A stretch of DNA of 64,000 nt from Candidatus Aminicenantes bacterium (GCA_963702005.1 OY969696.1:4032001-4096000), one strand, 5' to 3'; positions 16,857 through 50,283 are shown, counted from the first letter of the stretch. Numbers and translations: made by a program. The notes: generated by a model not told the origin, from the letters alone.

Positions 16857-16941
16857 TCAAATCATCGACACCCATACTAAGCCGTTTTCCGGCTTAGTAT
16901 GAGTACTGCAAGGCTGGGCTCGGCGTCGGCGAACGAGTCAA
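16857..16941. repeat. TCAA-bounded modular palindromic element
   Basis: Starts tcaaatcatcgacacccatac; hairpin catactaagccg-tttt-ccggcttagtatg; ends cgtcggcgaacgagtcaa, as does the 50179-50283 copy. Confidence 0.8.
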
Positions 16942-17342
16942 CCGATCCGGGCTTCCATGACGAAGGCGGGCGGCTTGGCGAGATAAGCCTTGACGGCGCA
17001 GGCCTCGGCGGCCTTGACGGCGGCCGCTTTGTACTTGGCCGGGAATCCGGCCGGGAGGAGGATTTCGATCGTGATCAGATCGATCATCTTCGTCTTCGCG
17101 TTCCGGCTCGTGCTCATCCGGATGGATAAGCCCTCGGTCGGGATCGCCCGCTCCTTGGAAAAGGCCAGGACGTAGTACCCGGCGCAGGTCGCCAAGGAGG
17201 CCAGGAAGAGGTCGAAGGGCGAAGGCGCGCTGTTTTCGCCGCCCGCCTGGACGGGTTGGTCGGTCTTGATCGTGAACCCCTTGACCAAGGCGTCGACCTT
17301 GACCCCGCCCGGGAAGCTGACCAGGATGTCCTTTTCGCTCAT
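16938..17342 (-). CDS. OsmC family protein
   Basis: TDQPVQAGGENSAPSPFDLFLASLATC...CAVK; ATGA coupling to the upstream gene. Confidence 0.9.
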   Translation of the reverse strand: MSEKDILVSFPGGVKVDALVKGFTIKTDQPVQAGGENSAPSPFDLFLASLATCAGYYVLAFSKERAIPTEGLSIRMSTSRNAKTKMIDLITIEILLPAGFPAKYKAAAVKAAEACAVKAYLAKPPAFVMEARIG

Positions 17343-18139
17343 GGCGTCGCTCCTTTGTTCTTTGGGTTCTCTTGAGTCGGCCGGTCCGGCTGCCGGGCCG
17401 CCTGCGAAAACACGGCCAGCAGCAGCCGCCTGTCCTCGTCGGTCAGGGCCAGTCGCCCGAAAAGGTCGGAGAGCCTCTCCCCCATGTGCCTCCGGTTCGC
17501 GGCGTGGAGGAAGCCCCCGGCGTCGAGCTTCTCGATGATGAGCCGGAGGAATCGTTCCTGCTCGCGCCTGGGAAGGGGACGGGACTCGCGGCGCCGCCGG
17601 AGAGGAGACGCCCGCCGGCTCCGGCTGAAGAGCGCGAAGAGCGTCAAGAGCACGGCGCCGGCCAGGTTGTAGGAGGGCTGTGAGGCCGCTTGGGGAATCG
17701 TAAACCTGAAGTTGGAATGACGGAGCTCCACCGAGGTCAGCCCGGTCCGTTCGTTCCCGAAGAGAAGTCCGATCCGGGCCAAGGACGGCGCGGCCAAAAT
17801 CCGGTCGAGAGCCTCCTCCCAAGAAAGGATCTCGAAATTTTTGCGGCTCTTCGCGGTGCCGGCGAAGACGAGATGGAGGTCGGCGACGGCCTCCGCCAGG
17901 TCAGGAAATATCCGGGCCCGGTCGAGGATCTTCCCGGCGTGGACGGCCGTTTTATGAGCGGTGGGGTCGAGGGGTCCGGTCCGAACGAGGCGCAGCTCCG
18001 TGAATCCGGTGTTCGCCATGGCCCGGGCGGCCAGGCCGATGTTCTCCGCGCTTTCGGGCCGGCAGAGGATAACGGCAAAGCGCCCTGCGAAGGCGGAACG
18101 CCCCGGGGCCGGCCGTTTCCTTTCGGAGCCTCGTATCAC
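17339..18139 (-). CDS. trmJ: SPOUT RNA methyltransferase, TrmJ/LasT family
   Basis: ENIGLAARAMANTG, FGNERTGLT, SYNLAGAV; start codon uncertain. Confidence 0.85.
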   Translation of the reverse strand: MIRGSERKRPAPGRSAFAGRFAVILCRPESAENIGLAARAMANTGFTELRLVRTGPLDPTAHKTAVHAGKILDRARIFPDLAEAVADLHLVFAGTAKSRKNFEILSWEEALDRILAAPSLARIGLLFGNERTGLTSVELRHSNFRFTIPQAASQPSYNLAGAVLLTLFALFSRSRRASPLRRRRESRPLPRREQERFLRLIIEKLDAGGFLHAANRRHMGERLSDLFGRLALTDEDRRLLLAVFSQAARQPDRPTQENPKNKGATP

Positions 18140-18193
18140 CCGTTTATTATACCGGACTTCGGCCCTGAACAAGCAACGGCCGGCGCGGGCGGT

Positions 18194-19060
18194 TCAGGCT
18201 TTCATCGAATCGATCAACTGCCGCAGCAGCGCGAAGTCGGTCTCCCGCCGGTAAAGGGGCTCTTTTCTGACTTGGTAGGCGCTTAACGTCTCTTCAAAAG
18301 GCTTCTTCTTGTCATTGAGATAAAAAATCCCCAGCGGGAGCGTGTCGGTCTCGATCGCCCGCCGAAACGCCGCCTGCCGGTCATAGGGATCGTGGGTCGG
18401 CTCCAGATAGCCGATGCGCTCTTTGAACCACTGATAAGTGTTGACCTTGTTGAATGAAACGCACGGCTGGAGAATATCGACCAGCGCGTAGCCGGCTCGA
18501 TGCTTCAACGCTTTTTGCAGGATCGCCACCGTCGCTTCGACATCCGCGCAGTAAGCCCGGGCGACAAACGAGGCGTCGAGCGCTATCGCCACCGCCAGAG
18601 GATTGAAAGGCGCTTCGCTGACCCCGTCCACCTGGACCGGAGTTCTGAAATTCAACTGGCTGGTCGGCGAAGCCTGCCCCTTGGTCAGGCCGTAGACCAT
18701 GTTATTATGGACGATATTGACGATCCCCGGGTTTCGGCGGATCGCGTGGATGAAATGGTTCCCCCCTTCTCCGTACATGTCGCCGTCGCCGCTTTCGGCG
18801 ATGACCACCAGGCCGGGATTGGCCGCTTTGATCGCGGTGGCCGGGGGAAGAGCCCGCCCGTGCAAGCCGTTGAAGATATGGGTTTTCAGGTAGTGGGGCG
18901 CCTTCGCCGCTTGGCCGATTCCGGAAACGATGACCAGATTTTCCGGCTCGATGTCCAGGCCGGCCAGCGCCTCTTTCAGGATCGTCAGGATCCGGAAATT
19001 CCCGCAGCCCGGGCACCAGGCGATATCGATCGGCCCCGGATCAAAGTCCTTTTTTTCCAT
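18194..19060 (-). CDS. korB: 2-oxoacid:ferredoxin oxidoreductase beta subunit
   Basis: WCPGCGN, SGIG, LHGR, GDGD...NN TPP motif, [11 protein letters not shown]. Confidence 0.93.
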
Positions 19061-20748
19061 TAGGCTATCGCCTCAATCTTGGCGCTCAGGGCTTCGACCG
19101 AAAAAGGCAGCCCGTCATAGCGGAGGATCTTATGACCGACATCGAACCCGGTCTGAAGCTTGAGCAGTTGGCAGAACTGGCCGGTCGCGTTATTTTCGAC
19201 CGCGATCAGCTTAGAGGCCTTTTTCAGATATTTCGACGTATCGGGATGAAGCGGATAGACCTGACGGAAATGGAGACAGGCCGTCCCTTTCCCGCCCAGT
19301 CGCGCCAGCGCCTCCTTGATGACGTTCCCGTTCGATCCCCAGCCGAGGATTAAAGTCCGATAATCGGCCGGCCCGGTCAGCTCCGGCGCCAGCGCCGCGG
19401 CGGCCAGTCCCTCTTTTTTCTTGAGCCTTTTATCGACGATGCGGACCCGCCAGTCGAGGTCTTCGCTGATATGGCCGTCCGCGTCATGTTCGTCGCTGTC
19501 GACGGCCACCAGGCCGCGGCCGTAGCCGGGAATGGCGCGCGGCGAAACGCCGTCTTCGGTCAAAGCGTAGCGTTGATAGCCCGGCTCCGACTCGACGAAG
19601 TACTTCTCGGCCGGGCCGGACGGCTCCAGCCCGGGGACATTGTAATAAGAATCCATCAGGTATTGGTCGGTCATGATGAAAACCGGCACTTGGAAGCGGT
19701 CGGCCAGGTTGAAAGCGTGGCGGGTCAGGTCGAAGGTTTCTTCAATGCTCCCCGGCGCCAGGATGGCGCGCGGAAATTCGCCGTGGCCGGCATAAAGCGC
19801 GAAGCTGAGGTCAGCCTGCTCCGTCCTGGTCGGCAATCCGGTCGCCGGCCCCGGCCTTTGGCCTAAATTGATGACGACCGGAAGCTCCAGCATCCCGGCC
19901 AGGCTTAAGCCTTCGACCATCAGAGCAAAACCGCCCCCCGAACTGGACACCAAGGCCCGCGCGCCGGCGTACCAGGCCCCGAGCGCCATGTTCATCGCCG
20001 CGATCTCGTCTTCCGCCTGCTCCACGACAAGGCCGAAAGTCTTAGCCTGCTGGGCCAGAAAAGTCATCACGCCGGTCGCCGGCGTCATCGGATAGGCGGC
20101 GATAAAATTGCAGCCGCCGGCCAGCGCTCCCAGCGCCATCGCTTCCGCCCCGCTCAGCAACGGCTCGGCGGCCGCCTGGGGATCGGGCTGGACATCGAAT
20201 CGTATGTTCAATCCTTGCCCGATCAGGTAACCGGCCTGGGCCGCCTGGACGTTGTTTTCGATGGTCGCCCGGTCTTTGCGCGAAAAATAGCGACGGAGAA
20301 AACTTTCGACGGTCTCGCGGGCGACCGAAAAAAGCCCGGCCACGACACCGATCGCGATCGTATTGGCATAGAGCTTGTCGCCGATCTCCAGGGCTTTAGC
20401 GCTGAATGGAACTTCAACGATCCGGCAGACCCCCGCTTCGCAGGTTTCGTCGATATTGTCCTTTTCGCCCAGGATCACGGTCGAAGAAGCGATCCTTTTT
20501 TGGAGATGCGAAGTCCGGCCCTTGTCGAGCGGTATCAGGATATCGATCCGGTCGCTGTAAGCCGCCACCCGTCGGGAGGAGACTCTGATCGAGGTGGAAT
20601 TGACCCCGCCCCGGATGCGGGACATATACTCTTTAGTGGCGAAGACGTGATAGCCGCTCAGCTTGAGAAGCCGGGTCAGGACCTGCTCGATCGTCTGGAT
20701 CCCCTGGCCGGCTTCGCCGCACAGGACCAGAGAAACGTCATCGGGCAT
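19060..20748 (-). CDS. korA: 2-oxoacid:ferredoxin oxidoreductase alpha (gamma-alpha) subunit
   Basis: [34 protein letters not shown]. Confidence 0.93.
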
Positions 20749-20905
20749 TCTTGTCGTTCTCGGCCACGAACTTCTTGATATCTTCGATATGCTCGAGGAT
20801 CAGCTTGGCCTTGGTGAGGCCGAACGAGAACGGAAATTTCTCGCCCTCATTTCTCTTCAACACCAGCAACGGATTCCCCTTATATTCGGAACGTTCGGCG
20901 ATCAT
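20738..20905 (-). CDS. Small hypothetical protein (55 aa)
   Basis: RBS aaggag; YKGNPLLVLKR...FPFSFGLTKAKLILEHIEDIKKFV; overlaps the korA start. Confidence 0.7.
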   Translation of the reverse strand: MIAERSEYKGNPLLVLKRNEGEKFPFSFGLTKAKLILEHIEDIKKFVAENDKNAR

Positions 20906-20971
20906 CGCGCGCTCCTTTCCTTGCCCGGAACGATTATACCTCACTGAATTCAATAGAAGATAGTCGTAAAG

Positions 20972-21921
20972 CTAATAACGAAAGCGGTAGTCGTCCACGG
21001 CCCGGAGAAAGGCCAGGATGTTTTCCCAGGGCACTTCGGGCTCGAGGACATGGGTCGGGCATGGGAAGTAGCCGGTCGGGCCGAGGACATCGATCGTCCT
21101 CTGGACGGTCTTATAGACGTCGTCGGGCGAGGAGAAGGGCATCGTCGTCTGCGTCCCGACCCCGCCCCAAAAGATCAGGCGGTCCCCGAACGTTTTCTTG
21201 ACCTCGGCCAGGTCGAGGCACTCCGGCTGCAGGGGGTTGAGCACCGTGACCCCGATCTCGACGAGGTCGGGAATGATGTCACGGCAATTGCCGTCGCTGT
21301 GGTAACAGACGGGGAGGTCGGGCCGCGCCTCGCGCGCCGAGCGGATGACCGCGGCGTGCCGGGGCTTGAACCATTCGCGATACATTCCGGGGCTCATGAG
21401 CATGGCCCTCTGCGTCCCCAGGTCGTCCCCGATCTTGAGCATGTCCACGCCCGCCTCGGCGAAGCGCCGCGCCTGGAAGCGGCGGATCGAGGTGATCCGA
21501 TCGAGCAGATATTCGGCGAAGGACGGGTTAAAGGCCAGGTCACTGAACAGCTCGGCCATCCCCCGCAGGTGCCAGGCGATCTCGAAAATCGTCCACTCCA
21601 TGAAACCGATGACGAACAGCCCGCGCTCGTGGAGGTGTCGGATTCGGCCCTCAAGATGCGCGTGCCGCGCCGGCGGCGTCAGGTCGGGGAAAGGATAGCG
21701 CTCGAGCTCCGCGATCGAGGCGAGCCGGAGCATGGGGTGTTCGAGCCGAACGAAGTGGTACAGCGAGCCGTCCCTGACGCCGACGCCCCATTCTCCGACC
21801 TCCCAACCGGCCGGGTTCCAGAAGCGCGGCAGGCCGTCCGGAAAATAGGCGCTGAAATCCGCGAGGTCGATCGGCGGCGCGAAAAAAACATCTGCTCCTC
21901 GATCAAGCGGCGCATCGGCAT
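20972..21921 (-). pseudogene. UroD/MtaA-CmuA family protein with a deleted, out-of-frame N-terminus
   Basis: GDDLGTQ, YHSDGN, LNPLQPE, PTHVL; the frame stays protein-like to ~21890 (DFSAYFP...EWGVG), but the RBS+ATG at 21921 is in another frame. Confidence 0.7.
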
Positions 21922-21957
21922 CCGATCCTCCGGTCCGGGGCCGCAGGGAGCGCCCCC

Positions 21958-22070
21958 TTACCCTCCGCCCCTGAGCGCCGTATCGTACATGGCCACGATA
22001 TTCTCCGGCGGCGTGACGGCGCTGATGTCGTGGCTCGATGCCAGAATGTAGCCGCCGCCGGTGGCCTCGA
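21958..22070 (-). pseudogene. C-terminal fragment of a second UroD/MtaA-family gene
   Basis: Manual translation EATGGGYILASSHDISAVTPPENIVAMYDTALRGGG*. Confidence 0.75.
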
Positions 22071-22512
22071 ATTCGATTTACCGCTCACCTTCAATAAGTT
22101 CGAGTGGGACAGGCGGGCCGAATATACGGTTTATCCCGACGACCATATCGGCCGTCCTCGGGGCGCGGCGCTCGCCCACCCGACCGCGGACCAGGCCGTC
22201 CCTCCGGCGGGGCGGCCTTTCGGGCTCGACGACCACGCCTGGGGTTCCAACGACTTCCGAAGCTCGAAGCGGGGAATCTATTGGGCCAGGTTATCCGGTC
22301 CGGGCGGTTCCGTCCGGGTCGTCTCGGACGGGACGCAGACCGTCCGCTGCGCGGTCACGTCCCACGAAGTCTCGCTCAAGGTGCTGGACTTCTACGGCGG
22401 ATCGGGAGGACCCAAGGAATGGTCGGTCCTCGGCTTTCACTACGGGGCCGGCCGGCTGATAAAAACCGGAGAGACGGTCAAGGGCACGGTGAGGCTGAAG
22501 CTCATAGAATGA
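22060..22512 (+). pseudogene. C-terminal fragment of a probable GH2-type glycosidase
   Basis: WDRRAEYTVYPDDHIGRPRG...SNDFRSSKRGIY resembles C-termini of large GH2 proteins; no start or RBS. Confidence 0.55.
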
Positions 22513-22519
22513 AGCCCGG

Positions 22520-22799
22520 CCGGTGTCTGGGAAGACCGGATATGGGCTGGCCGCCGGCTCTCTTCCTCCAGAGTCTTCAGGTCATAAGGATCGAACCGCC
22601 GCTTCCAGCGATAAAACGTTTGGGCGGAGATCCCAAAATAACGGCAGGTCCGACGGGCGTTCCCGTATCGGCCGTAATACTCGAACCAACGCAGCCGCTT
22701 GGCGGCTTCTCGCGTGATTGTCCCCTGACGAACGATGGACCGGATGTACTCCGAGCCTGGGATGATGAATCCATGGTTTGCAGGGGGCTTTACGTACAT
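22520..22799 (-). mobile_element. Truncated IS481-like transposase (N-terminal HTH only)
   Basis: AAKRLRWFEYY...NARRTCRYFGISAQTFYRWKRRF...LEEESRRP; no DDE domain. Confidence 0.75.
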
Positions 22800-22826
22800 G
22801 GCGACACCTATCATAGCCCATGGTGT

Positions 22827-23361
22827 TGGCGCCGTAGCCGCCGCCAACGCTCACCATGCCGACTTCGATGAGCGTGAGCCCAATCAACGTCACCACCGTG
22901 CCGGTGACAATTGGCGTGATCACCGCGCTCGCGTAGCGAATGAACCGGCTGGCGAGCATCACAACGAACTCTCCGGCGAAGCACAGCCCGAACACGACGC
23001 CGAGCGCACGTTGCGGGCTCGCGCCGGAGGCCATCACGATGCCCGCCGCGGAGATCACCGGCGCGATGAACGTGAAGCTCGTTCCCTGAATGCTCAGCAG
23101 CCCGGAGCCCACGGGCCCGATCTGGCGTGTCTGCAGAATCGTGGCGGCATCGGACACGAACAAAGACATGCTGACGAGATACGCCGTCTCCGCCGCACCC
23201 AGTTTCAGCGCGCCGGCGATCAGCAGCGGCGGCGTCACCATGCCCACGAACGTCGCGAACACGTGCTGAAGCGCGACGAGCAGCGTCTTCTACAGCGGCG
23301 GGGAATCGTTCAGACCATAGATGAGGTCCGTGCTCGCGGCGGCAGGCTTCTGCGCGGCCAT
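22827..23361 (-). pseudogene. Xanthine/uracil permease (NCS2) N-terminal fragment with an in-frame TAG
   Basis: DLIYGLNDSPPL*KTLLVALQHVFA...GSGLLSIQGTSF...IVTGTVVTLIG; TAG at 23290-23292; truncated at the IS fragment. Confidence 0.85.
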
Positions 23362-23375
23362 GCGTGGCTACGGCG

Positions 23376-24509
23376 TCACTTGTCGTACGGAGGAGTGCGG
23401 TCGCGATATCTCGCCCAGTGCCCGACGATCTCGTTCACCACCACCGAGCCCACGCGATACGCCGCTTCCACCGAAGCGGAAAGACCTACGTATCCCTCGT
23501 TCTCGCGCAACAGGTGTTCGGCTGCGGTCATGCCGCCCGGCGGCTGCATCGTGAAGTTGCTGGCCGTGCGCAGAACCATCACCCGGTCTTTGTTCACCTT
23601 GCCAGTGGGATGCAGATACGTGAGCGCCCGATACGTACCGGTGTCTTCCATCGCGGAGGTGACGAAGTTGCCTTTGCCCTCCGTCCAGTAGCTCACCCAG
23701 CGATCGGCCCACTCGTTGAGAATCTTTCCGTGCCAGAACGTCATGGCCGCCAGGTTGTCGCCCTTCAGCACGAACGGCGGCTTCTGCGCATTCGGATAGC
23801 CGGTGTATTGCGCGCGCTCCTTCTGCAGCGAAGGGTCGTCATCCAGCACGACGTTGCGAGTCATCTGATACGCCCACTCGGTGAGCGCGCCATTCAGATG
23901 AAACATCTCACCGGTGGGCTCGGGCTTTTTCGGGTCGTAGGGCTTGCGCGTGTCGCGCGCGAAGTAACCCGTTGGCCAGTCCGGTGGCATCTCGCGCGCG
24001 TCGATCTCGTGTGCGAGATCGCCGTCGACGAGATATTCAGCCCAGGCGGCGGAGCCGATCGAGGCATCCTGCGGATCCACGCCCGCGATGCCGGCCACGA
24101 GCCAGTACGCGTGCGAGAGATCGAAGCGCGGGTCCGTGCCGAGCTCCATCACCGCAGTGGCAGAGTTCGCCGTGCCCATGCCGGTGACCATGCCGAGCAC
24201 GCCGGTTTCGCGATTGAAATAGAGGTCGTGGTGATGGGCGAACAGAAAGCGCTCGTTGAGCTTTTGCCGCTCGTGCCACAACTGGAATTCGCCGGCGACA
24301 TCGCCCGAGTCCGCCCCGATTTCAAACATCGTGACGACCACGACCCTGACCTCGATCGGCCTCGTGTCGCTCGCCTTCGCAGGCGTGGCGGCCTGCATTC
24401 CGGAAGTGGACGCACAGCCCGCAAGCACACACGCTGCTGCCGCCACCAAAGCGGCACGCAGCAGCGTGTGAAGCCTGAAGGATAGGAAATTCCTTTTTTC
24501 GTGCAGCAT
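23376..24509 (-). CDS. Purine nucleoside permease (NUP) family lipoprotein
   Basis: VVVVTMFEIG...GEFQLW, DPRFDLSHAYWLVAGIAG, SAMEDTG, LRTASNF; lipobox LAGC. Confidence 0.88.
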   Translation of the reverse strand: MLHEKRNFLSFRLHTLLRAALVAAAACVLAGCASTSGMQAATPAKASDTRPIEVRVVVVTMFEIGADSGDVAGEFQLWHERQKLNERFLFAHHHDLYFNRETGVLGMVTGMGTANSATAVMELGTDPRFDLSHAYWLVAGIAGVDPQDASIGSAAWAEYLVDGDLAHEIDAREMPPDWPTGYFARDTRKPYDPKKPEPTGEMFHLNGALTEWAYQMTRNVVLDDDPSLQKERAQYTGYPNAQKPPFVLKGDNLAAMTFWHGKILNEWADRWVSYWTEGKGNFVTSAMEDTGTYRALTYLHPTGKVNKDRVMVLRTASNFTMQPPGGMTAAEHLLRENEGYVGLSASVEAAYRVGSVVVNEIVGHWARYRDRTPPYDK

Positions 24510-24632
24510 GAAAACGCCGGCTTCAGGCTCGAAATCAACCCTTCCCCTCACAAAATGAGGATATCCCGGCCGTAGTCGATCGCGCCGATCGAGAGCGGCG
24601 GGGGGTGTCCGGTTCGATAGCCCCATCTTAAG

Positions 24633-25106
24633 TTATTTGCTCTTGCGGATCTTCTCCAGCGTCGCTTTGGCCTCGGGAACCTGGGCCAGGAAAGCCGTAA
24701 GCTTCTGGCAGGGGTATTCGGCGCAATAGGCGCAGTTTTGAACTTTCTTATCCCTGGCGCACTTGCGGATCTCACAGATGCGGCAATAATTGAAGATTCT
24801 CTGCGAATCGCTGGGGCAACCGTCGCAGTTGACGTCTTCGGGTTTTATCTTGGATTTAAATTGCTCCGACCACTTTTTCGCCGTTTCCGCCCGCATCGCG
24901 TCGTCGTTCTTCTGGGTGGCGATATAGGCCGGGCATTCGCTACAGGTGATCCCGCAGTAGGCTATCATTTTCTCCTGAGGCTTCTTGGGCTGACCTTCCT
25001 GCCGGGCCGATGATCTCGCGCTCCGGAACAGCAACGGGATGCCCAAGCCGGCGAGCGTCATTTTCAGACATGTCTGGCAGAACTCCTTACGTGTTTGCGT
25101 TTTCAT
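24633..25106 (-). CDS. DUF3795 Cys-rich metal-binding protein with a Tat-like leader
   Basis: RBS ggaggt; TRKEFC leader; AYCGITCSECP, CDGC, CEIRKC, CAYCAEYPC. Confidence 0.85.
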   Translation of the reverse strand: MKTQTRKEFCQTCLKMTLAGLGIPLLFRSARSSARQEGQPKKPQEKMIAYCGITCSECPAYIATQKNDDAMRAETAKKWSEQFKSKIKPEDVNCDGCPSDSQRIFNYCRICEIRKCARDKKVQNCAYCAEYPCQKLTAFLAQVPEAKATLEKIRKSK

Positions 25107-25298
25107 AGCATCACCTCCTTGTACGGTTTCCTGGCCGACAGCCAGGCCAGAGTCATTATTGTATTCCATGATACGGCGTTTCATCATCAAAAATCAAACC
25201 GCTGAACATCGCGGAACACGAGAATGGGTACAGAAGCCGGCCCTCCATGAAGTACTCGCGGGCTCAGTCCGGCCTGAGACGGTCGGCTTCGGCGGAAA

Positions 25299-40002: not shown

Positions 40003-40039
40003 CCGGCGGTCAGAACTAGAAACGGAAATCGCAAGCTGC

Positions 40040-40939: not shown

Positions 40940-41046
40940 TTGACCCGTTCGCCGACGCTACCCCGCCCTGAAAGGCGGGGACGAGAAGTGAGGCTCAGGG
41001 TTAACCCCGAATAAGCCCCGGCATTCATGCCGGGGAGTCGAGGGGT
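40940..41046 (-). repeat. Modular palindromic element with two IS200/IS605-type hairpins (inverted copy of 50179-50283)
   Basis: ccccgccctgaaaggcgggg and ccccggcattcatgccgggg; its reverse complement aligns along the full length with 50179-50283. Confidence 0.9.
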
Positions 41047-41105
41047 GTACTCCTTGCTTCGGTTAGGGTATGAAAAAGAGGGAAGATGCCCGGTAAGGAG
41101 CTACT

Positions 41106-41477: not shown

Positions 41478-42641
41478 CTATTTTCGGACGCCGGGCGCCG
41501 GGCCGTAGAATGTCGCGGGATTCGATGTGTAGACGGCTCCGATAAATACGCCCTCGTTGCCGCCGGCGAATTTATGCGGCTCGGGCGCGCCCTTAGGCAC
41601 GAGAACGAGCTGCTTGTCGGTCTTCCCGCCGAACGAGCGCTGGTTGTCGCCCGTCTTGAAGTAATAGGCATTGCGCAGGATGAAGGGCTTCCATTCGGGC
41701 AGGACTTCCGCTCCGACTCTGCAGGCGACGGGCCGGTCGGCCGCGAAGGCCGCCTGGAGTTCGATGCCGTTGAGGGGCACTCCGTCGAGCTCGCCGATCG
41801 CCCCGTACTGCCCGTCCGCCAGGACCCACTTGTGGAACTGCTCCAGCCAGACTTCCGCGACCGAATGGGCTTCGCTGCGGGTTTCGACGTCGCGCGGCAG
41901 AAGGTTGACCAGGCGGGCCGGCATTCCGTAAGCTTTGGCCACGCCGGCCATGACGATGGCATACTCCCGGCAAATGAAACGCCCGCCCTTCTGCGCCTCC
42001 CTCAGAATCGTGACGGGATCGGACTTGGAAGCCATCTGATTCGGACTGTGCTGCCAGCGGCTGCTGACCCACCGCGTCAGGCGGCACAGCCGCTCGTAAT
42101 CGTCTTTCGCTCCGGCCACGACGGCGTCGATCGCAAATTCGCGCCGCATGTCCTGCAGTTCCTTCGTTTCCGGCGAGTCGAACAGAACCTGGAACTCCGG
42201 CGGGCTCTGGCTGAGATCCCACTCGAGCGGGCGGGGGCCGTATTTGGCCTTGAGATCAGTGACCAAGAGCGTGAATTCGGGATCGCTCCGCAGGCACTCG
42301 AAGTCGGCGTCGCTCGCGAAACTGGCGGCGTCCGTGAAGCCGGCCGCGATGCAGTCCCGGACGGCGGCGACGGCCTGCGCCTTTTGTCCCGCGAGGGCAT
42401 GGACGCAGGCCTTATTGTAGAGCACTCCGGCCCGGACTTCCCGGTTGCCGAGGCGGTCGGCAAGCTCCAACTGGCGCTCGATGACGCGAAGGGCGCCCGC
42501 CCAGTCTTTCTGGCTGTATAAGCGGGCCAGCTCCCGGCTCGAATCCTGAAGCTCCTTCTCCACGGACGTCTGGGCCGACGCCGTGAGACACAGCAGCAAG
42601 GCCGTCAAACCCGCGCCAACGATTTTCTTGATTCGAATCAT
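41478..42641 (-). CDS. Secreted TPR plus transglutaminase-like domain protein
   Basis: LYNKACVHAL TPR; candidate triad ICREYA / AHSVAEVW / WVLADG. Confidence 0.85.
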   Translation of the reverse strand: MIRIKKIVGAGLTALLLCLTASAQTSVEKELQDSSRELARLYSQKDWAGALRVIERQLELADRLGNREVRAGVLYNKACVHALAGQKAQAVAAVRDCIAAGFTDAASFASDADFECLRSDPEFTLLVTDLKAKYGPRPLEWDLSQSPPEFQVLFDSPETKELQDMRREFAIDAVVAGAKDDYERLCRLTRWVSSRWQHSPNQMASKSDPVTILREAQKGGRFICREYAIVMAGVAKAYGMPARLVNLLPRDVETRSEAHSVAEVWLEQFHKWVLADGQYGAIGELDGVPLNGIELQAAFAADRPVACRVGAEVLPEWKPFILRNAYYFKTGDNQRSFGGKTDKQLVLVPKGAPEPHKFAGGNEGVFIGAVYTSNPATFYGPAPGVRK

Positions 42642-42841
42642 GGTCCCTCCCTATAAAAGACCTTCTAAAGCAAATACGCCCAGGACTTCCAGAAAGTTTA
42701 CGCTCTTTTTTAGAATAAGCGCCGGTGCCGGACGAACAAGCTCCTCCATCATTTTTTTCGATCAGGTAACGAATAGGCGGGGATTCATGTATTATCTTAT
42801 ACATGATCTCTTTTGAGCCGCTCGGGCATAAGGAGGCCGCT

Positions 42842-44329
42842 ATGAAGTCCAAAATCTTCGCCGCTCTCATGATCTGTCTGTTTCTTACCGGAGCCCTCTG
42901 GGCCCAGCAGCCCGGCGAGCAGAGCTACAGCGACAGCCCGAGCCTGCTCCAGGGGATCAAGGGCGAGCGGGTCCGGTCCGTCATCGACACCATAAACTCG
43001 AGCGACCCGGATCGAGTCCGCCGTTTTATCAACGAGGAATGCACCGGCTCCTTCCGGACGGGTATTCCGATGGACGAGCACGTCCAAACGCTTTTGGGAT
43101 TTTTCCGGCAAACCGGGGGCGTCGATTTCTTCGGCATCCGAAGCTATGTTCCCGAACGCAAGGGCGAAACCGTCGTTATCGTCAAGGACCGGAACCTGGA
43201 AAGCTGGTGGGGCATCACGCTCCGCTTCACGGAGAGCCCCGAAGCCCTGATCCAAGGCATCGGAATCAGCCCGGCTCGCGCGCCGTCAGGATTGAAGGAA
43301 GCGCCCCTGACCGAAGGCGAGTTCGCCGCGCAAACCAAGGCGCTTATCGACAAGCTCATTGCCAAGGGCGCATTTTCGGGGGCTCTCCTGGTCGCCAAGG
43401 GCGACAAAGTGCTGCTGACCTCGGCCGGCGGAGAAGCCAGCAAGGCCTTTCACGTCCCGAACAACGTCGACACCAAGTTCAACCTGGGATCGATGAACAA
43501 GATGTTCACCTCGACGGCGATCATGCGGCTGGTCGAACAGGGAAAACTCTCTCTCGACGACCCGATCTCCAAGTTCCTGGACGAGTCTTGGCTTCCTAAG
43601 TCCGTAACCGAAAAGATCACAATCCGCCATCTCCTGACCCACTCCTCCGGGCTGGGGAGCTACTTCAACGAGACCTATGACAAGAGCTCCCGGGCGCTCT
43701 TCCGCAAGCTCGACGACTACAAGCCCCTGATCAAGGACGACCGGCCGGCCTTCGAACCGGGCAGCCGCTTCCAGTACAGCAACACCGGGATGTTCCTGCT
43801 GGGCGTCGTCATCGAGAAGGTCACCGGCCAGGGTTATTTCGAACACATCCGAAAGGCCATCTACGAACCGGCCGGGATGACGAACAGCGACTCCTACGAG
43901 ATGGACGTCCCGGTCGAAAACCTGGCCATCGGGTACAGCCCCGATCCGTCCAGTCCCACCGGCTGGAGGAATAACCTTTATACTCACGTCATCAAGGGCG
44001 GTCCGGCCGGAGGCGGGTTCTCGACGGTCAAAGACCTCCACAAATTCGCCCTGGCCCTCCTGGCCGGGAAATACGTCTCTCCGGAGAGCCTGAAGATGAT
44101 GTGGACGGACCACCTCAAGGCCAACTACGGCTTCGGGTTCACGGTCGACCAAGGCCCCGCCGGCAAGGTCGTCGGGCACAGCGGCGGCTTCAGCGGGATC
44201 AACTCCGAGCTCGATATCTACCTGGATTCCGGGACTATCGTCGCCGTTATGTCCAACATCGATATGGGCGCGAGCCCGCTCGCCCGCAAGCTCGGCCAGT
44301 GGCTGGCCCGGGTCGGACCTGCGAAATAG
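42842..44329 (+). CDS. Serine hydrolase (beta-lactamase family, S12)
   Basis: SMNK (SxxK), LLTHSSG, YSN, GHSGG; signal peptide. Confidence 0.92.
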   Translation: MKSKIFAALMICLFLTGALWAQQPGEQSYSDSPSLLQGIKGERVRSVIDTINSSDPDRVRRFINEECTGSFRTGIPMDEHVQTLLGFFRQTGGVDFFGIRSYVPERKGETVVIVKDRNLESWWGITLRFTESPEALIQGIGISPARAPSGLKEAPLTEGEFAAQTKALIDKLIAKGAFSGALLVAKGDKVLLTSAGGEASKAFHVPNNVDTKFNLGSMNKMFTSTAIMRLVEQGKLSLDDPISKFLDESWLPKSVTEKITIRHLLTHSSGLGSYFNETYDKSSRALFRKLDDYKPLIKDDRPAFEPGSRFQYSNTGMFLLGVVIEKVTGQGYFEHIRKAIYEPAGMTNSDSYEMDVPVENLAIGYSPDPSSPTGWRNNLYTHVIKGGPAGGGFSTVKDLHKFALALLAGKYVSPESLKMMWTDHLKANYGFGFTVDQGPAGKVVGHSGGFSGINSELDIYLDSGTIVAVMSNIDMGASPLARKLGQWLARVGPAK

Positions 44330-44364
44330 TCAAACCCTCGACACTTCTATGATGGCGAAACGCA

Positions 44365-44520
44365 AGCCCCGAGAGTCTTTTTTCTTATCTTCGTTCCTTA
44401 TGGCTGCCTCGGTTTCTTGAACCACCCTTCTATCCGCGCCTCTAAGCGCACTGTAATATCCGGTCTCGGCTCCTAAACCTCATGGAGAACGCGACTCTCG
44501 CGAGTCCGTTAAGTGTCGTC
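44365..44520 (-). ncRNA. Putative bridge RNA/seekRNA of the IS1111-type element
   Basis: Two hairpin-centred loops whose flanks match the target (CGACACT, TCCATGAG) and the donor (ATATTAC, ATAGAAG); RNA ends are approximate. Confidence 0.8.
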
Positions 44521-45552
44521 CTAGGCAGCCGATCGATTCATGTCCGGGAGATACGTTCTTTTCTCGGTCAAGATGCGATAGATAATGGTCAGGAGCCGCC
44601 GCGCCACCGCGATCTTGGCCGCGTTCGGCCCCTTCCGCCTGGCCAGCCGGTTGTAGAGGACTCGAAGTCCTAGGTCTTTCTTGATCGCCGGATAGACCGC
44701 CTCCAGCGCCGCCCATCTCAGCCAGGCGCTCCCCTGTTTGGTGATCCGCCCATGATATGTCCGCTCTCCCGACGCATAGGTCGAAGGAATTACCCCGGCG
44801 TAGGAGTGAAGATGGGCCGGACTGGAAAACCGTTGGATATCCGCGATCTCCACCGCGACCAGTACCGCCAGCGTCGTGGCAAAACCCGGGATGCTGTCGA
44901 TGCGGGAGGCCTCCTCGATCGTTCCATACAAGGCTTGGACCCTTCCATCCGACGCCTTGATATGAGCTTGGGTTTCTTGATGTCCCCGCAGAAGATCGTC
45001 CAAGACCATCTTGTCCGGTCCCTCCAAGGGAAGCCGGCTGAGGAACTCGATCCCGCGGCCGCTGAACAGCCCGCCCGTTCGCTTGTCCACCTCCAGCCGG
45101 ATCTCTTCCTTCTGCTGAGCCAAGAGCGCCCGGATCTTGTTCTTGATTTCCGTCTGGATCCGAACCCAATAGGCCCGGGCTCTCAGCACTCTTTGCGCTT
45201 GCCGGTTCGCCTCGCCTCGTTGATAGATTTCCGGAATCAGGTCCGCCCGTAAAAGCTGGGCCAGTGTCCGGGAATCCCGCTTGTCCGTCTTGATCCGGGC
45301 ATGGGCGATCGCTTTGACCTGAAGCGCATTCGCCATTTTCACCTCGCCGCCCAGTTCCCTGAGAAGATCCGCCATCACATAGGAGGACCGCCCAGCTTCG
45401 AGAACGGCCGTGAACGGATGAAACCCCTTGAGGAAGGTCTCGACATTCCTCCTGAGGTTGAAGACGCGCCCCGTCTTCAGTTCCCGTCCGTCTTCGGCCA
45501 GAACCGTCAGCTGAGAGGCTTGCTTGTGATGGTCGACACCGATAAAATACAT
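44521..45552 (-). CDS. IS110-family DEDD recombinase/transposase
   Basis: IGVD, LEAG, KTDKRD, SIPGF, YAGVIP...ASG (catalytic Ser region), AVARRLL. Confidence 0.95.
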   Translation of the reverse strand: MYFIGVDHHKQASQLTVLAEDGRELKTGRVFNLRRNVETFLKGFHPFTAVLEAGRSSYVMADLLRELGGEVKMANALQVKAIAHARIKTDKRDSRTLAQLLRADLIPEIYQRGEANRQAQRVLRARAYWVRIQTEIKNKIRALLAQQKEEIRLEVDKRTGGLFSGRGIEFLSRLPLEGPDKMVLDDLLRGHQETQAHIKASDGRVQALYGTIEEASRIDSIPGFATTLAVLVAVEIADIQRFSSPAHLHSYAGVIPSTYASGERTYHGRITKQGSAWLRWAALEAVYPAIKKDLGLRVLYNRLARRKGPNAAKIAVARRLLTIIYRILTEKRTYLPDMNRSAA

Positions 45553-45641
45553 CTGCGCACCTCCTTAAAAGAATTTGAGTCGACGTGTAATCTATCACAG
45601 TATTACCCGTCAGGGAGGTGCGTTTCGCTATCATGTTACCT

Positions 45642-45815
45642 CATGGAAGCCCTGAGTGCAGGCGTTTCGCAGTACTCATACTAAACGGGAAACGGTTTAG
45701 TATGGGTGCTGCAAGGCTGCTACCGGGCATGAAGGCCGGCACTCATAAGCCGTTTCCGGCTTATGGGTACTGCGAAACCGCCGCACTCATGAACCGGAAA
45801 CGGTTCAGCGGTTAA
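45642..45815. repeat. REP-like hairpin cluster, the remainder of the element interrupted by IS110
   Basis: Hairpins 45669-45712, 45739-45770 and 45790-45807; nested IR 45661-45680/45762-45782; shares sequence with 16857-16941. Confidence 0.85.
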
Positions 45816-45944
45816 GACCTCCCGTCAACCTGTTCGAAACTCTTCGGGCGCATTCCCACCCCTGTGGCTTGGAGACTTTTTGAATGAGTGCTGCATGCTT
45901 AGTGTGCCCCGTCCTATCCTCCGGGGAGGACCCCCTCAGGCGGG

Positions 45945-47393
45945 TCAGCGCTTCAACAGGGTCGGAGGGCCCTCGGGGATAAAAGGCTTGTAGACCACGC
46001 CCTTGGTTTTCTCCCGGAATTCGGCCTGAACGGCCTCGAGGATCTTGGCGTCTTCGAACAGGTCCACCATCGTCGTCGCCAGAGCCTTGGCCGCGTAGAC
46101 CAGCCCTTTGTGGCCGATCGACATCCCTCCGCAGGCGACGACGGGCCAGGCGTGCCAGGGAGCGTCCACGGGCGCCGTAGTGGCGTTCATGCTCAGGGTG
46201 GGAACGATCCAGCTCACGTCGCCGACGTCCGTCGAGCCGCCTTCCGGATCCGGCTTCGGCGCCGACCACGGCTGGACCGCGCCGTCGAGGCCCTTCGGGT
46301 CTATGCCCGTCGCGCGCTGGATCTCTTTGGCGAATTCCTGCTCCTCCGGCGTGAACTTGATCGGGCCGAGCCTCATGAGGTTGGCGAACATCACTTTTTC
46401 CCCGGTCAGGTTGACGAGGGTCTCCCAGTTGCCCCCCTGCACCGTGATCTTCGATTCGACTTCAGCCATCATGGCCGCACCCTCGGCGATCCGGCGCGCC
46501 CAGGCGAGAAGCTGCTCCACCCCGGCCCCCTTCGAATCGCGAAGCCAGCACCAGAGCCTGGCGTAGGCCGGCACGACGTTCGGCACGTCGCCCCCGTTCA
46601 GAATCGAGTAGTGCATTCGGACGGTGGGCTTGACGAATTCGCGCATGCGGTTCAAGCCCGTGACGAAGAGCTCCAGAGCGGCCACCGCGCTGCGGCCGTT
46701 CCAGGGGTCGCCCGCCGCGTGCGCGGTTTTGCCCTTGAACTCCAGGATAAAGTCGACGATGGCCTGCGAGCCGTCAACGGAGACCCGGGTCTTCTCGTCG
46801 GGGTGCCAGGCCAGGCAGACATCGAGGTCCTTGAAGAACCCCTCCCGGATCATGTACACCTTGCCGCCGACGGCTTCTTCGGCGGGCGTCCCGTAGAACC
46901 GGATCGTCCCCTTGAGTTTGCCCGCGGCCATCAGGTCCTTGACGGCCAGGGCGGCCCCGAGGGCCGCCGTGCCCAGGAGGTTGTGCCCACAGCCATGGCC
47001 CGGCGAACCGGCCTGCAGGGCTTCCTTCACAGGCTGGACTCTCTGGGACAGGCCCGGCAGGGCGTCGTATTCGCCCAAAACTCCGATGATCGGCCGGCCC
47101 TCCCCGTAGCTCGCCACGAACGCGGTCGGCATGCCGGCCACGCCGCGTTCGACCGTGAAGCCTTGTTTTTCGGCATAGTCCGCGAGCAGCTTCGAGGAAC
47201 TCGTCTCCAGCAAGGCGGTTTCGGCGAACGCCCAGACCTGATCGCTCAGGCCGATGATTTCGGTTCTGTGTTTTTCGATGGAGGCAACAGCTTCCTCTTT
47301 TTTCTTGACGGAGGCGCCGGCCGCCAGCTGGGAAATAATCAACAGAGCGGCGAGCAGGACTACGGCGTTCGGAAGACGTGTTTTCATCGGCAT
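45945..47393 (-). CDS. M20 amidohydrolase, AbgB-like, secreted
   Basis: EYDALPG, HGCGHN, GTPAEE, WHP, GSTDVGDVSW. Confidence 0.9.
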   Translation of the reverse strand: MPMKTRLPNAVVLLAALLIISQLAAGASVKKKEEAVASIEKHRTEIIGLSDQVWAFAETALLETSSSKLLADYAEKQGFTVERGVAGMPTAFVASYGEGRPIIGVLGEYDALPGLSQRVQPVKEALQAGSPGHGCGHNLLGTAALGAALAVKDLMAAGKLKGTIRFYGTPAEEAVGGKVYMIREGFFKDLDVCLAWHPDEKTRVSVDGSQAIVDFILEFKGKTAHAAGDPWNGRSAVAALELFVTGLNRMREFVKPTVRMHYSILNGGDVPNVVPAYARLWCWLRDSKGAGVEQLLAWARRIAEGAAMMAEVESKITVQGGNWETLVNLTGEKVMFANLMRLGPIKFTPEEQEFAKEIQRATGIDPKGLDGAVQPWSAPKPDPEGGSTDVGDVSWIVPTLSMNATTAPVDAPWHAWPVVACGGMSIGHKGLVYAAKALATTMVDLFEDAKILEAVQAEFREKTKGVVYKPFIPEGPPTLLKR

Positions 47394-47608
47394 CCTCTCT
47401 TTCGTTTCAAGCCGGAATTCGAAGCGAGTGTGAAGTGACCCGGCCCCGTCCGGAAAGACTATATAGCTTCGTTCGAACGGCTGTCAAGAAGGGTGCGCGC
47501 TGCACCTCATCGAACCGTTCATTCCGCTATCGGTTCGGAAATCGTAATTCAGGTGGATAGGATTTTGCTTTTTCCGTGCGGGCTGAATTCTCAGTCTGAA
47601 CGATGAAT

Positions 47609-47637
47609 CTTTCCCCCTGACCCATGCCGGAATTTTA
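47609..47637 (+). repeat. 29-bp direct repeat, copy 1
   Basis: ctttccccctgacccatgccggaatttta, identical to 50310-50338. Confidence 0.9.
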
Positions 47638-47684
47638 TCTCCGGCCCGGCGGCGGCGGGAGGGTGAGAATCCGGAGAAATCCGG

Positions 47685-48716
47685 CTACCATACTTTTTCG
47701 GAGTGCAGATCCCAGGCTTCGTCCTCGTCGTTATATCGAAGATAGAAATAACGGCCTTGGTAGAAACAGAAAAGGATGCCGTTGGATAGACGGCCGGTAA
47801 AGGGGAGGAAGATCCTCCGCAATTCACGCCCTTGCTGGTCGAAGACGGCGAATTCCGCCGTATCCGGGCCGTACTTATAGGTTCGGGTGACGAATTTCCC
47901 GTCGACGACGTCAAAATAATCGAGCCCCGGCGTGGCGTCGGGAAAGTAGAGACGCTTTTCGAATTCCTGCCATCTCGGCCTCATCTCCGGATCCTCCCTG
48001 ATGGGCTTGAGGATGGCCTCTTTCACGGCGGCCGTGATCTTGACCGGTTCCAGGGGCAGGCGGATCTCTTTTTGCCGGAGGCCGTTCTCGTCATAGACCG
48101 TGATGATCGATTCCTTTCCCGAAGCGATGACGAAGATTTGATCGTCTGACACCCGGGCCGAATAATAATCCCCCACGAGGTTGATCTTCTCGATGTTCAT
48201 CGATTCCCTTTGCGCGCCGATCTCTCTGATCAGCTTGAAATCTTTGTCGTATAAACGGATCGTCGTGACGACTCCCGTGGAGTCGAATTGAACATCCCTG
48301 GCCAGGAAATTCTCGCCGAGGCGATAGATCCCTCCTTTAAACACCCCGATGGTGAGCTTGATCTCATTGATGTACTCGCCCTCCAAGGAAAAGCGGGCGA
48401 GCTTATTGGAGCCCGGAATATCCAGGTGATCTTTGAAGACGCTGACGCGGTGAATGAAATCAAATTCGCCGGGGCCCTGCCCTTCGCGTCCAAAGGTTTT
48501 GACGAACGAGACGCCCTTGGCGCCGATCGTGAAAAGATGCACGGCCGCGGAATTCTCCACGATATAGACCCTGCCGTCGGAGATCGTGACAAAAAAGGGA
48601 TTCATCACCTGGGGCAGCTTGGCGACCAGCTCCCCCGCTGCCGGCTTGGCGGCGAACATTATGCCCAAAACAGAAATGAGTCCGAAAAATCGGAAAAGCG
48701 TCTTTCGACCTTTCAT
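47685..48716 (-). CDS. 6-bladed beta-propeller exported protein
   Basis: Signal peptide; FGREGQGPGEF motif. Confidence 0.8.
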   Translation of the reverse strand: MKGRKTLFRFFGLISVLGIMFAAKPAAGELVAKLPQVMNPFFVTISDGRVYIVENSAAVHLFTIGAKGVSFVKTFGREGQGPGEFDFIHRVSVFKDHLDIPGSNKLARFSLEGEYINEIKLTIGVFKGGIYRLGENFLARDVQFDSTGVVTTIRLYDKDFKLIREIGAQRESMNIEKINLVGDYYSARVSDDQIFVIASGKESIITVYDENGLRQKEIRLPLEPVKITAAVKEAILKPIREDPEMRPRWQEFEKRLYFPDATPGLDYFDVVDGKFVTRTYKYGPDTAEFAVFDQQGRELRRIFLPFTGRLSNGILFCFYQGRYFYLRYNDEDEAWDLHSEKVW

Positions 48717-48828
48717 CCAAACCTCCCTTGGCGAGGAAACGTCTCTCCGGACCTTGAATCTCCTTCGGTAACGATGCCTCCCCTCATAAATTGATGATAT
48801 CGCCGGCCGCGGGTCGTAGTCAACCCCT

Positions 48829-50178
48829 CGCATTGAATCACGTAAAATGTTACCGAAGGAAAGCCCGTTGAATCATATAAAATGTTACCCAAATCTCCTA
48901 AAGGATAGGGTGACATGGATAGGATGGACATGCGATCACGAGAACAGTATCTGAAAGCTCTCTTGGGACGGTATCTCAGGGCCCGAAAAAGGGGGAAGAG
49001 CGCGCTTTTAGACGAATACTGCCGCAATACGGGCCTGGCGCGCAAGTCTGTTCTGCGGAAGATGGCCAGCCTCCTTAAGGGGGACTCGCGGCCCCGGAAG
49101 GCGAGACGGCGGGTGTACGGAAGGCCTGTGCGGGTGGCCCTAGAGACGCTCTGGGAGATCTTCGATCGGCCTTGCGGCCAGAGGCTGAAGCCCTTGGTCG
49201 AGGAGGAGTTGGGTAGGCTTCGCGCTTTGGGTGAGCTTGAGGTCGATGAGAAGACCGCCCGGCAACTTCGGCGGGTCTCGCCGGCCACGATCGACCGCCT
49301 CCTGAAGTCGAGGAAGACCGAATGGATCGCCCAACGGCGCTACGGGCGGGTCGGGGGGAATCTCATCGCCAAGAAGATCCCGCTGAAAATGACCGATTGG
49401 GACCTCCACCAAGTCGGGTTCCTGGAGATGGACTTGGTTCTCCACTGCGGGGCTTCGACGGCCGGCGAGTATGCCCACAGCCTCTCCGCCCTGGAGATCG
49501 GCTCGACCTGGTGGGAGGGCGAGGCGGTAATGGGCCGCGCCCAGGGCCGGATTTTCGATGCTATCAAGAAGATCCGGGCCAGGACCCCCTTCACCTGGCG
49601 GGGGATCGACTCGGACAACGACAACGCCTTCATCAACGATCAGCTCTACCGGTACACCCAGGAGGAGGGACTGGCCTTCACCCGGTCCCGGCCCTATCGC
49701 AAGAACGACAACGCCTATATCGAACAGAAGAACTTCACCCATGTCCGCCGGCCGCTGGGCTACCTGCGCTATGACACCCCCGAAGAGCTGAACCTGATAA
49801 ACGATCTATACAGAAACGAGCTGCGGCTCTTCAAGAACTTCTTCCAGCCGGTAATGAGACTCGAGCGCAAGGAACGGGTCGATGGGAAGACCCGCAGGCG
49901 CTATGCGAAGCCCCAGACGCCCTATCGGATCCTCCGGGAGTTGGGGCAACTCCCCCCGGAGGCCCTCAAAACCCTGGACGACCTCTATCGCAGTCTCAAT
50001 CCCGCCGACTTGAAGCGTCGGATCGACCAGAAGCTGAAGAGACTTTTTACCCTGTATGAGAAGAAACGCAAGGGGCTTGTCCAGGTCGATCCTTACAAAA
50101 AACTCGATCCTTCTTCGGTATCATTTTCGGTGATGCAATGACTACCGTTTCGGTAACATGGTTATATGAGTTGACACG
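48829..50178 (+). mobile_element. DDE insertion sequence (ISNCY/IS481-like integrase-core type) with reiterated sub-terminal repeats
   Basis: Left cattgaatcacgtaaaatgttaccgaag vs right (reverse complement) cattgcatcaccgaaaatgataccgaag; two motif copies per end; flanking cccct(cg) direct repeat. Confidence 0.85.
48915..50141 (+). CDS. DDE transposase (integrase core)
   Basis: EMDLVLH, GIDSDND, RSRPYRKNDNAYIEQKN. Confidence 0.92.
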   Translation: MDRMDMRSREQYLKALLGRYLRARKRGKSALLDEYCRNTGLARKSVLRKMASLLKGDSRPRKARRRVYGRPVRVALETLWEIFDRPCGQRLKPLVEEELGRLRALGELEVDEKTARQLRRVSPATIDRLLKSRKTEWIAQRRYGRVGGNLIAKKIPLKMTDWDLHQVGFLEMDLVLHCGASTAGEYAHSLSALEIGSTWWEGEAVMGRAQGRIFDAIKKIRARTPFTWRGIDSDNDNAFINDQLYRYTQEEGLAFTRSRPYRKNDNAYIEQKNFTHVRRPLGYLRYDTPEELNLINDLYRNELRLFKNFFQPVMRLERKERVDGKTRRRYAKPQTPYRILRELGQLPPEALKTLDDLYRSLNPADLKRRIDQKLKRLFTLYEKKRKGLVQVDPYKKLDPSSVSFSVMQ

Positions 50179-50283
50179 CCCCTCGACTCCCCGGCATGAA
50201 GCCGGGGCTTGTTCGGGGTTAACCCTGAGCCTCGCTTCTCATCCCCGCCTTTCAGGGCGGGGTGGCGTCGGCGAACGGGTCAA
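50179..50283 (+). repeat. Modular palindromic element interrupted by the DDE IS (left stub at 48820-48830)
   Basis: cccctcgactccccggcatgaagccgggg...ccccgcctttcagggcgggg...cgtcggcgaacgggtcaa. Confidence 0.88.

Follow-up and report, generated by a model that had tools for sequence, protein, structure and literature searches.

The 64,000-nt window analyzed in this work (G000:C1:4032001-4096000) belongs to the Candidatus Aminicenantes genome G000, a single contig of 4.31 Mb with 60% G+C and 94% completeness by marker genes, and contains four copies of a short, hairpin-bearing repeat that we refer to as the TTGAC family. This family is an element of a known kind, similar to palindrome-associated transposable elements (PATEs) and repetitive extragenic palindromic (REP) sequences. 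It inserts beside a single (T)TGAC without duplication of the target and is polymorphic for presence and absence, and it probably moves by a single-strand mechanism of the Y1/HUH type. The units are delimited by a left terminus, L (TCAACCCCTCGAC or GTCAAATCATCGAC), and a right terminus, R (..GCGTCGGCGAACGGGTCAA). All four copies reported by a first-pass annotation of the window are present, namely copy 1 at 16856-16941 (minus strand), copy 2 at 40940-41050 (plus strand, inverted), the truncated copy 3 at 44329-45828 (minus strand) and copy 4 at 48819-50283 (minus strand).

Both termini are repeated throughout the genome. An 18-mer representing R has 64 exact matches in G000 and 129 matches with at most two mismatches, and for a 13-mer representing L the corresponding numbers are 41 (exact) and 106 (at most one mismatch), while the reversed-pattern control gave no match in the same genome; the abundance of the terminal motifs is far beyond chance. 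The two motifs co-occur, as the first-pass annotation had anticipated: L lies 67-360 nt upstream of R on the same strand for 67 of the 129 R motifs, and seven more R motifs have their TCAA in common with the L of the next element. A second variant of L was found at the head of a set of near-identical copies. Looser terminal patterns identified 116 complete elements of 67-360 nt in G000, and a BLAST search with all paired elements revealed 173 repeat islands with a total length of 21.2 kb. The numbers of R motifs counted across genomes are 111 in G000, 154 in G001, which is a sister genome from the same genus, and one in G002. Among 41 relatives, R is multi-copy only in the genus of G000 (G001) and in one other family of the order (17 copies in G005, nine in G025 and three in G013), and in a sample of 300 genomes of the phylum it is multi-copy only in this order; the other matching genomes of that sample have 1-3 one-mismatch R matches each, near the level of the reversed control. 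The suggestion that the family might be undescribed is in line with an Rfam search, which gave no match in the window at the gathering threshold, and with the literature (supplements excluded), where we found no report of such repeats in Aminicenantes or of an IS200 element with a TTGAC target. The family is an example of mobile DNA of very small size that is active in an uncultivated phylum, for which we found no mobile elements described in print.

The mobility of the family is evident both from its youngest members and from empty sites. The young subfamily consists of 12 copies of 111 nt with 98.5% mutual identity, six of which are equal to the consensus, and the flanks of these 12 copies are only 25.8% identical, which is the random level. 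For the analysis of empty sites, the flanks of 30 element-bearing loci of G001 were mapped to G000; both flanks were mapped for 19 loci, and the junctions were read for the ten of them whose flanks are at most 250 nt apart in G000. Three loci (L052, L044 and L037) correspond to clean empty sites with a single (G)TCAA, three others (L032, L053 and L060) to near-clean empty sites with GTTAA, TTCA or GTCAG, and the loci L042, L056 and L034 are filled in both genomes with quite different members of the family. In addition, wetland metagenome contigs from runs X2 and X4 skip exactly the 106 nt of copy 2 and keep one TTGAC, and a contig from run X3 skips 1460 nt (48819-50278), i.e., copy 4 together with its insertion sequence (IS), and keeps one GTCAA. 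The comparison of filled and empty sites in relatives, which the first-pass annotation had called for, is thus available both from G000 against G001 and from metagenome contigs.

The pentamers at the two ends decay differently. When scanned with cores that exclude the flanking pentamers, GTCAA is intact at 102 of 111 L-side ends, which are the ends of the element, versus 94 of 123 R-side ends, which adjoin the host (Fisher p 0.0014), and the changes on the R side mostly hit the outermost base. Since this decay is one-sided, the L-side copy is assigned to the element and the R-side copy to the host, where it is the target (effectively NTGAC when read on the opposite strand). The TCAA ends recognized by the first-pass annotation are real; however, they do not form a symmetric boundary, as one copy is the host target and the other is part of the unit. 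Together, the empty sites and the one-sided decay demonstrate that the element inserts 3' of a specific sequence of 4-5 nt and does not duplicate its target, as in PATEs. The same data bear on the possibility that the family is a classical MITE (miniature inverted-repeat transposable element) mobilized by a DDE transposase and bearing terminal inverted repeats along with a target duplication of 4-5 bp (TCAA/GTCAA). The termini do weakly resemble inverted repeats (TCAACCCCTCGAC compared with the reverse complement of R), GTCAA is present at both ends, and the empty sites hold one copy of it. However, GTCAA is frequently not the same at the two ends of a single element, even in near-identical young copies, and this difference is one-sided; the strong link between orientation and replication described below is unexpected of cut-and-paste DDE elements; G000 has no DDE element with the ends of the family; and the sole DDE IS that touches the family has its own 7-bp duplication and other ends. 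The combination of terminal inverted repeats with a target duplication was thus not found, and we consider a DDE-driven MITE very improbable.

The orientation of the elements is linked to chromosome replication. According to the cumulative GC skew, the origin and terminus of G000 are located near 0.6 Mb and 2.75 Mb, respectively, and the element strands are distributed as 15 plus and 43 minus on one replichore and 50 plus and 8 minus on the other (Fisher test, 4.5e-11). As a result, the TTGAC-first strand is on the lagging-strand template in 93 of 116 elements, which is the placement of the active strand found in PATEs. Gene orientation cannot explain this bias, because only 53% of genes, by crude gene calls, are co-directional with replication (binomial p 1.8e-9). 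The resident IS200 copies are oriented likewise (9 of 11), and the lagging-strand template is also the target of IS608 and ISDra2 (bioRxiv 10.1101/279083). Replication-linked orientation is a mark of single-strand "peel-and-paste" transposition.

A second orientation bias concerns the neighboring genes: the next gene is co-oriented with the TTGAC-first strand in 80 of 116 elements (p 5e-5), which agrees with a partial preference for -35 boxes. Because insertions target the -35 core, they can reside in promoters and leave them intact, and the family may affect gene regulation and the reading of promoters in these genomes. The co-orientation could alternatively be read as the signature of a structured RNA or regulatory cassette (promoter, terminator or mRNA stabilizer) that is selected by the host and is not mobile DNA; the terminal TTGAC of the unit, being the core of a -35 box, can rebuild a promoter, and the hairpins are stable. 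We give this alternative hardly any credence in view of the presence/absence polymorphism among close strains, the near-identical copies with unrelated flanks, the 36 of 116 copies that adjoin gene ends, the lack of an Rfam match in the window and the fact that no conserved partner gene was seen.

The ends of the family were compared with those of IS200 relatives from the same order, which gave a match in 20 of 201 genomes. Read in the sense of tnpA, these relatives have a 5-nt site immediately beyond the left end, followed by a spacer of 12-14 nt, a 5-nt guide and a 20-nt hairpin; with this spacer range allowed, 9 of 11 distinct left-end guides form Watson-Crick pairs with the site at three covarying positions. 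For instance, in the relatives L076-L109, which share 75-84% DNA identity, the left-end 5-mer varies and the 5-mer before the left hairpin changes in compensation. The relatives L076, L078, L083-85 and L106 from other Aminicenantales have TTGAC as both target and right end. In IS608, the guides are located 5' of each hairpin foot, the pairs being C_L TTAC/G_L AAAG and C_R TCAA/G_R GAAT (PMC5934647), and both of these pairs obey the same positional rule as TGAC/CAAG. One end of the young subfamily consists of TTGAC, 13 nt, CCAAG and a CCCCG hairpin with an 8-bp stem and a 4-nt loop, and the other end consists of ACAAG, an 8-bp/4-nt hairpin and 15 nt ending in TTGAC. At the level of sequence, the young subfamily is thus laid out like the IS200 relatives of the same order. 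Among the elements with recognized CCCCG hairpins, flanks of the xCAAG type are present at 37 of 55 right ends and 30 of 55 left ends. These features suggest that, in the young subfamily, CAAG serves as a DNA guide and base-pairs with the TGAC cleavage site at either end. They also provide a natural test of the DNA-DNA pairing rule established for IS608, with nine guides that covary with their sites and a gene-less element whose young subfamily fits the pattern at both ends. The GTAG/CGTC tags of the REP superfamily (PMC3733652) were considered as well and rejected; many copies do contain them in the form GGTAGCGTC, but they flank the hairpin on the wrong side and lack conservation.

We propose that the members of the family are small gene-less peel-and-paste elements, presumably PATE-like derivatives of an IS of the IS200 group. 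Read on the active strand, the unit is located directly 3' of the host (T)TGAC and itself ends in TTGAC; a Y1 HUH transposase supplied in trans would excise this strand as a circle, and the circle would then be pasted beside another TGAC on the lagging-strand template. The idea of Y1/HUH substrates, which the first-pass annotation had put forward, fits the empty sites, the replication-linked orientation and the guide/cleavage pairing of the IS608 type, and we regard a Y1/HUH mechanism as probable. The observation that no Y1 enzyme is encoded in the window also holds, and the rest of the genome supplies candidates: the Y1 genes of G000 comprise 11 copies of a 150-aa IS200 TnpA and three longer, RAYT-like proteins (RAYT, REP-associated tyrosine transposase), and TnpB (PF07282) was not found in G000. 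The best candidate for the enzyme is the TnpA of the 11-copy resident IS200, whose own ends show the same layout. This TnpA is present in both high-copy genomes, G000 and G001, and was not found in G002 with its single R motif; we put its role as the specific enzyme at a little below an even chance.

A number of observations weigh against the proposed reading. For the enzyme, no IS200 was found in G005, G013 and G025, which hold 3-17 copies of the family, and five genomes with TTGAC-type IS200 lack the right motif of the family. The resident IS200 has different hairpin sequences and the cleavage sites TGCAC and ..TTTAC, and its ends are unlike L and R. No Y1 gene bounded by the family termini was found in G000, G001, G002, G005, G013 or G025. 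For the guides, the right ends of the TTGAC-type IS200 relatives break the guide rule at one position (G opposite G); 22 of the 55 left ends, with flanks of the CGCTA type and a spacer of only 11 nt, misfit the rule; and in the 23 one-hairpin elements, which have no CCCCG hairpin, the flank fits only two of the three tested positions. For the choice of the active strand, the folding energies of the two strands differ slightly (-66.8 versus -68.5 kcal/mol), a weak difference that persists without G-U pairs, and the types of stem mismatches are contradictory, with 25 C·A versus 3 T·G at one position and the opposite at another (7 versus 2). Finally, the copies are mutually related, so that counts across copies overstate independence.

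The search for a tnpA gene flanked by the termini, proposed by the first-pass annotation, returned nothing in G000 or the relatives searched. All L-R pairs that are 400-6000 nt apart in G000 are elements interrupted by IS110 or another IS, or are unrelated, and none is an autonomous copy; the claim that the family is non-autonomous is supported accordingly. Neither an autonomous relative with the same ends nor a TnpA shown to act on them was found, and the IS200 relatives resemble the family in layout and, in other genomes, in having TTGAC as their site, while their sequence differs. One way to accommodate these facts, which we offer tentatively, is that the family is a self-guided parasite of IS200. 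Under this reading, both ends carry the same left-end-type guide, CAAG, which would allow a resident TnpA, with other sites in its own element, to excise and insert the unit at TGAC, and the terminal TTGAC would rebuild the promoter that was entered. The family and the IS200 variants would then form a natural series of re-programmed single-strand transposons, and, given the nine natural guide/site variants, the targeting code could be read directly from the sequence.

Alternatively, the family might be REP/REPIN-like and moved by one of the three single-copy RAYT-like proteins, not by IS200 TnpA. All three have the NCBIfam model of the REP-associated tyrosine transposase as their best match, each below its cut-off (61-79 versus 80 bits). 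RAYTs act in trans on high-copy hairpin repeats, and with such an enzyme neither the orientation bias nor the single-strand logic would change. However, RAYT1 and RAYT2 are each flanked by their own, different REP families, and none of the three genes has the family termini within 5 kb. The orthologue of RAYT2 in G001, which holds 154 copies, is broken by a partial element. RAYT3, which has no repeat family at all, was rejected as a partner for lack of co-occurrence: its orthologues were not found in the family holders G001, G005, G013 and G025 and are present in genomes without the family. Simple REP hairpins moreover lack the two distinct ends and the defined target that characterize the units. 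The arrangement typical of REPs and REPINs, in which a single-copy RAYT gene is flanked by the repeats and found in the same genomes, was thus not observed, and mobilization by a RAYT seems unlikely.

PATEs are gene-less derivatives of IS200/IS605 elements with sub-terminal hairpins, which depend on a Y1 transposase in trans and insert 3' of a short sequence without duplication. The TTGAC family resembles them in having no gene, in its sub-terminal hairpins, in its short target without duplication, in the copy of the cleavage sequence at its far end, in the dependence on a Y1 enzyme in trans proposed here and in the link between orientation and replication. It differs from PATEs, a term that occurs in PMC7290912, PMC4810608 and PMC3119063, in that no matching autonomous element exists, both ends carry the putative left-type guide CAAG for the same TGAC site, and the units (67-360 nt) contain numerous optional hairpin modules, with a single unrelated hairpin in one abundant form. 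With IS608 and ISDra2, in which a guide 5' of the hairpin foot recognizes the cleavage site (PMC5934647), the family may share such a guide, namely the putative CAAG, and it shares a target that is kept in the left flank, and the ISDra2 target TTGAT is one base away from TTGAC; however, both of these elements are autonomous and encode tnpA (with or without tnpB), whereas the TTGAC family is DNA only. Moreover, the left and right cleavage sites of IS608 differ from each other, unlike the same TGAC site at both ends of the family.

Similarity to REP sequences, bacterial interspersed mosaic elements (BIMEs) and REPINs with their RAYTs (PMC2817692, PMC8266576) consists in high-copy extragenic hairpins, a mosaic arrangement and a Y1 enzyme in trans, and G000 also carries two classical REP-RAYT pairs. 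In contrast to these repeats, the TTGAC family has two defined, non-identical termini and an insertion site, does not flank any RAYT gene and is present independently of RAYT genes. The BOX elements of Streptococcus pneumoniae have the structure boxA-boxB(n)-boxC. Like BOX elements, the family has conserved terminal modules around a variable number of internal modules in a fixed order; however, the sequences are unrelated, and the TTGAC family has a target site that can be named, empty sites and a plausible enzyme class. REP sequences are also known as targets of insertion sequences (PMC1525189); similarly, all four IS110 copies of G000 are inserted at one position of hairpin A of the TTGAC family, with the difference that the site of landing belongs to a module of a PATE-like mobile element and not to a REP.

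The interiors of the 116 elements fall into 41 architectures, as labeled by regular expressions, a labeling that is approximate and misses worn hairpins. The commonest ones are L-A-R (23 elements) and L-B1-C-B2-R (20 elements, with seven more in which B1 was not recognized); most of the long forms, which reach 360 nt, were seen once. All 41 architectures have their modules in an identical order, and the variants of hairpin A are bound to positions, with A1/A2 located after L in 37 of 38 cases, A3 in the 3' arm of B2, the second CCCCG hairpin, in 9 of 11 cases and A4 after H in 12 of 15 cases. The first-pass annotation had described the interiors as mix-and-match; they do vary, but they are not freely exchanged, as the order is fixed and each hairpin variant is tied to one position. 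The fixed order and the position-bound variants make the variety look like optional parts of one long layout. We infer that optional hairpin modules of one collinear long form were lost, and sometimes duplicated, by recombination or slippage between internal direct repeats. In agreement with this route, the junctions of the short forms fall in an approximately 18-nt repeat that follows each type-A hairpin, as expected from deletion between direct repeats.

These regularities also argue against an origin of the variety mainly by repeated nested insertion of independent small hairpin elements in place of loss from a long form. On the other hand, the module GAAGCTCCACGGACT.. stands alone outside the family, at 11194-11250, 11285-11321 and 4188-4224 of the window, ACTCA..TGAGT hairpins are present in a few foreign contexts, hairpins are found within the arms of other hairpins, and the orthologous sites L042, L034 and L056 hold quite different members in G000 and G001. 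We therefore consider nested insertion rather doubtful as the main source of variety; nevertheless, it still contributed, since the H module is an independent repeat found elsewhere and orthologous sites differ. Separately, a hairpin repeat containing ..CCACGGACTTACGTCCGTGG.. is solitary at window positions 4188-4224, 11194-11250 and 11285-11321 and is also nested in long members of the TTGAC family.

The four copies in the window illustrate this diversity. In copy 1, the inserted unit occupies 16856-16936 and the host target TTGAC, in minus-strand reading, occupies 16937-16941; the unit starts with the left variant GTCAAATCATCGAC, followed by a single long ACCCATAC..GTATGAGT hairpin of type A1 and by R with one change. 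The TGA stop codon of an OsmC-like gene (16938-16940, minus strand) is contained in the host TTGAC of this copy; in G001, the OsmC-like gene stops two codons later, and another member of the family is located 13 nt further on. In copy 2, the host target TTGAC at 40940-44 is followed by a 106-nt unit (40945-41050) with two CCCCG..CGGGG hairpins and a GGGTTAACCC core, and the far end is mutated to TGTAC instead of TTGAC. In copy 3, the left terminus is accompanied by several type-A hairpins and a single CCGGGC..GCCGG hairpin; the right motif is absent and the right end has no second occurrence in G000, so the copy is truncated and the end at 45815 proposed initially is only approximate. Copy 3 starts at the last base (44329) of the TAG stop codon of a beta-lactamase-family hydrolase, the gene annotated earlier as a serine hydrolase. 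Copy 4 consists of a 105-nt unit and the host GTCAA, and its left terminus is interrupted by an IS. The claim that two copies abut or supply stop codons is therefore accurate, the OsmC-like TGA lying inside the terminal TCAA and the hydrolase TAG ending at 44329, which is the G of GTCAA. Since a unit end can abut or supply a stop codon, and since contig ends of the sister draft genome coincide with the repeats, the family matters for annotation as well as for assembly.

A clean empty site for copy 3 was sought in G001, where the 44-nt spacer is too diverged; 6.1 kb stands there in G000. This 6.1-kb region (44330-50420), with copy 3, an M20 peptidase gene, a beta-propeller gene and copy 4, corresponds to the 44-nt spacer with one TTGAC in G001:C120. 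A 29-nt direct repeat, identical at 47609-47637 and 50310-50338 (2701 nt apart), brackets the beta-propeller gene and copy 4, and in metagenome contigs the segment 47531-47626 is replaced by 80 other letters.

Two insertion sequences have landed in the window copies. Copy 3 is interrupted by an IS110-family element at 44345-45633 (minus strand), located in the 5' arm of its first hairpin (..CGACAC^TCATGG..). The transposase gene of this element (44521-45552) matches Pfam DEDD_Tnp_IS110 and Transposase_20 and the NCBIfam IS110 RNA-guided transposase (195.6 bits, cut-off 140), and a non-coding part of approximately 180 nt is located 3' of the gene. The other three IS110 copies, at G000 2354010-2355297, 3156130-3157340 and 3583742-3585030, are inserted at the same position as the window copy, in the 5' arm of the ACTCAT hairpin (..AC^TCAT..), one of the four being in the complementary hairpin arm in reverse orientation. 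The TTGAC family also serves as a landing pad for an RNA-guided IS110 element. The IS in copy 4 (48831-50178, plus strand) is 1348 nt long, encodes a 408-aa transposase (48915-50141) with a weak IS481 match (E 3.3e-8) and no Pfam match, and is bracketed by the 7-bp duplication CCCCTCG (48824-30 and 50179-85). It has four identical copies, in the window and at G000 628950, 1389999 and 2924103, and each 7-bp duplication directly follows GTCAA or GACAA, i.e., it is located 7 bp upstream of a TTGAC(A)-like hexamer. The 1348-nt IS is a second element homing to -35-like boxes. It also bears TTGACACG at its own right end.

Two REP families were observed in the same genome. The REP AATAATTCTGGGGACACACGACTTAATTC forms an inverted pair at 9153-9260 of the window, has many genome copies and flanks a 217-aa RAYT-like gene on both sides (G000 2326423-2327082), which makes it a classical REP-RAYT pair. 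A second, palindromic REP family (GGGGTCAAACCTACACTTTGT..) flanks a 312-aa RAYT-like gene (G000 713755-714726), and its center is the insertion point of the IS200 copies at 1259993, 2614818, 3781633, 717274 and 2083742 and, in G001, also of the TTGAC element L039.

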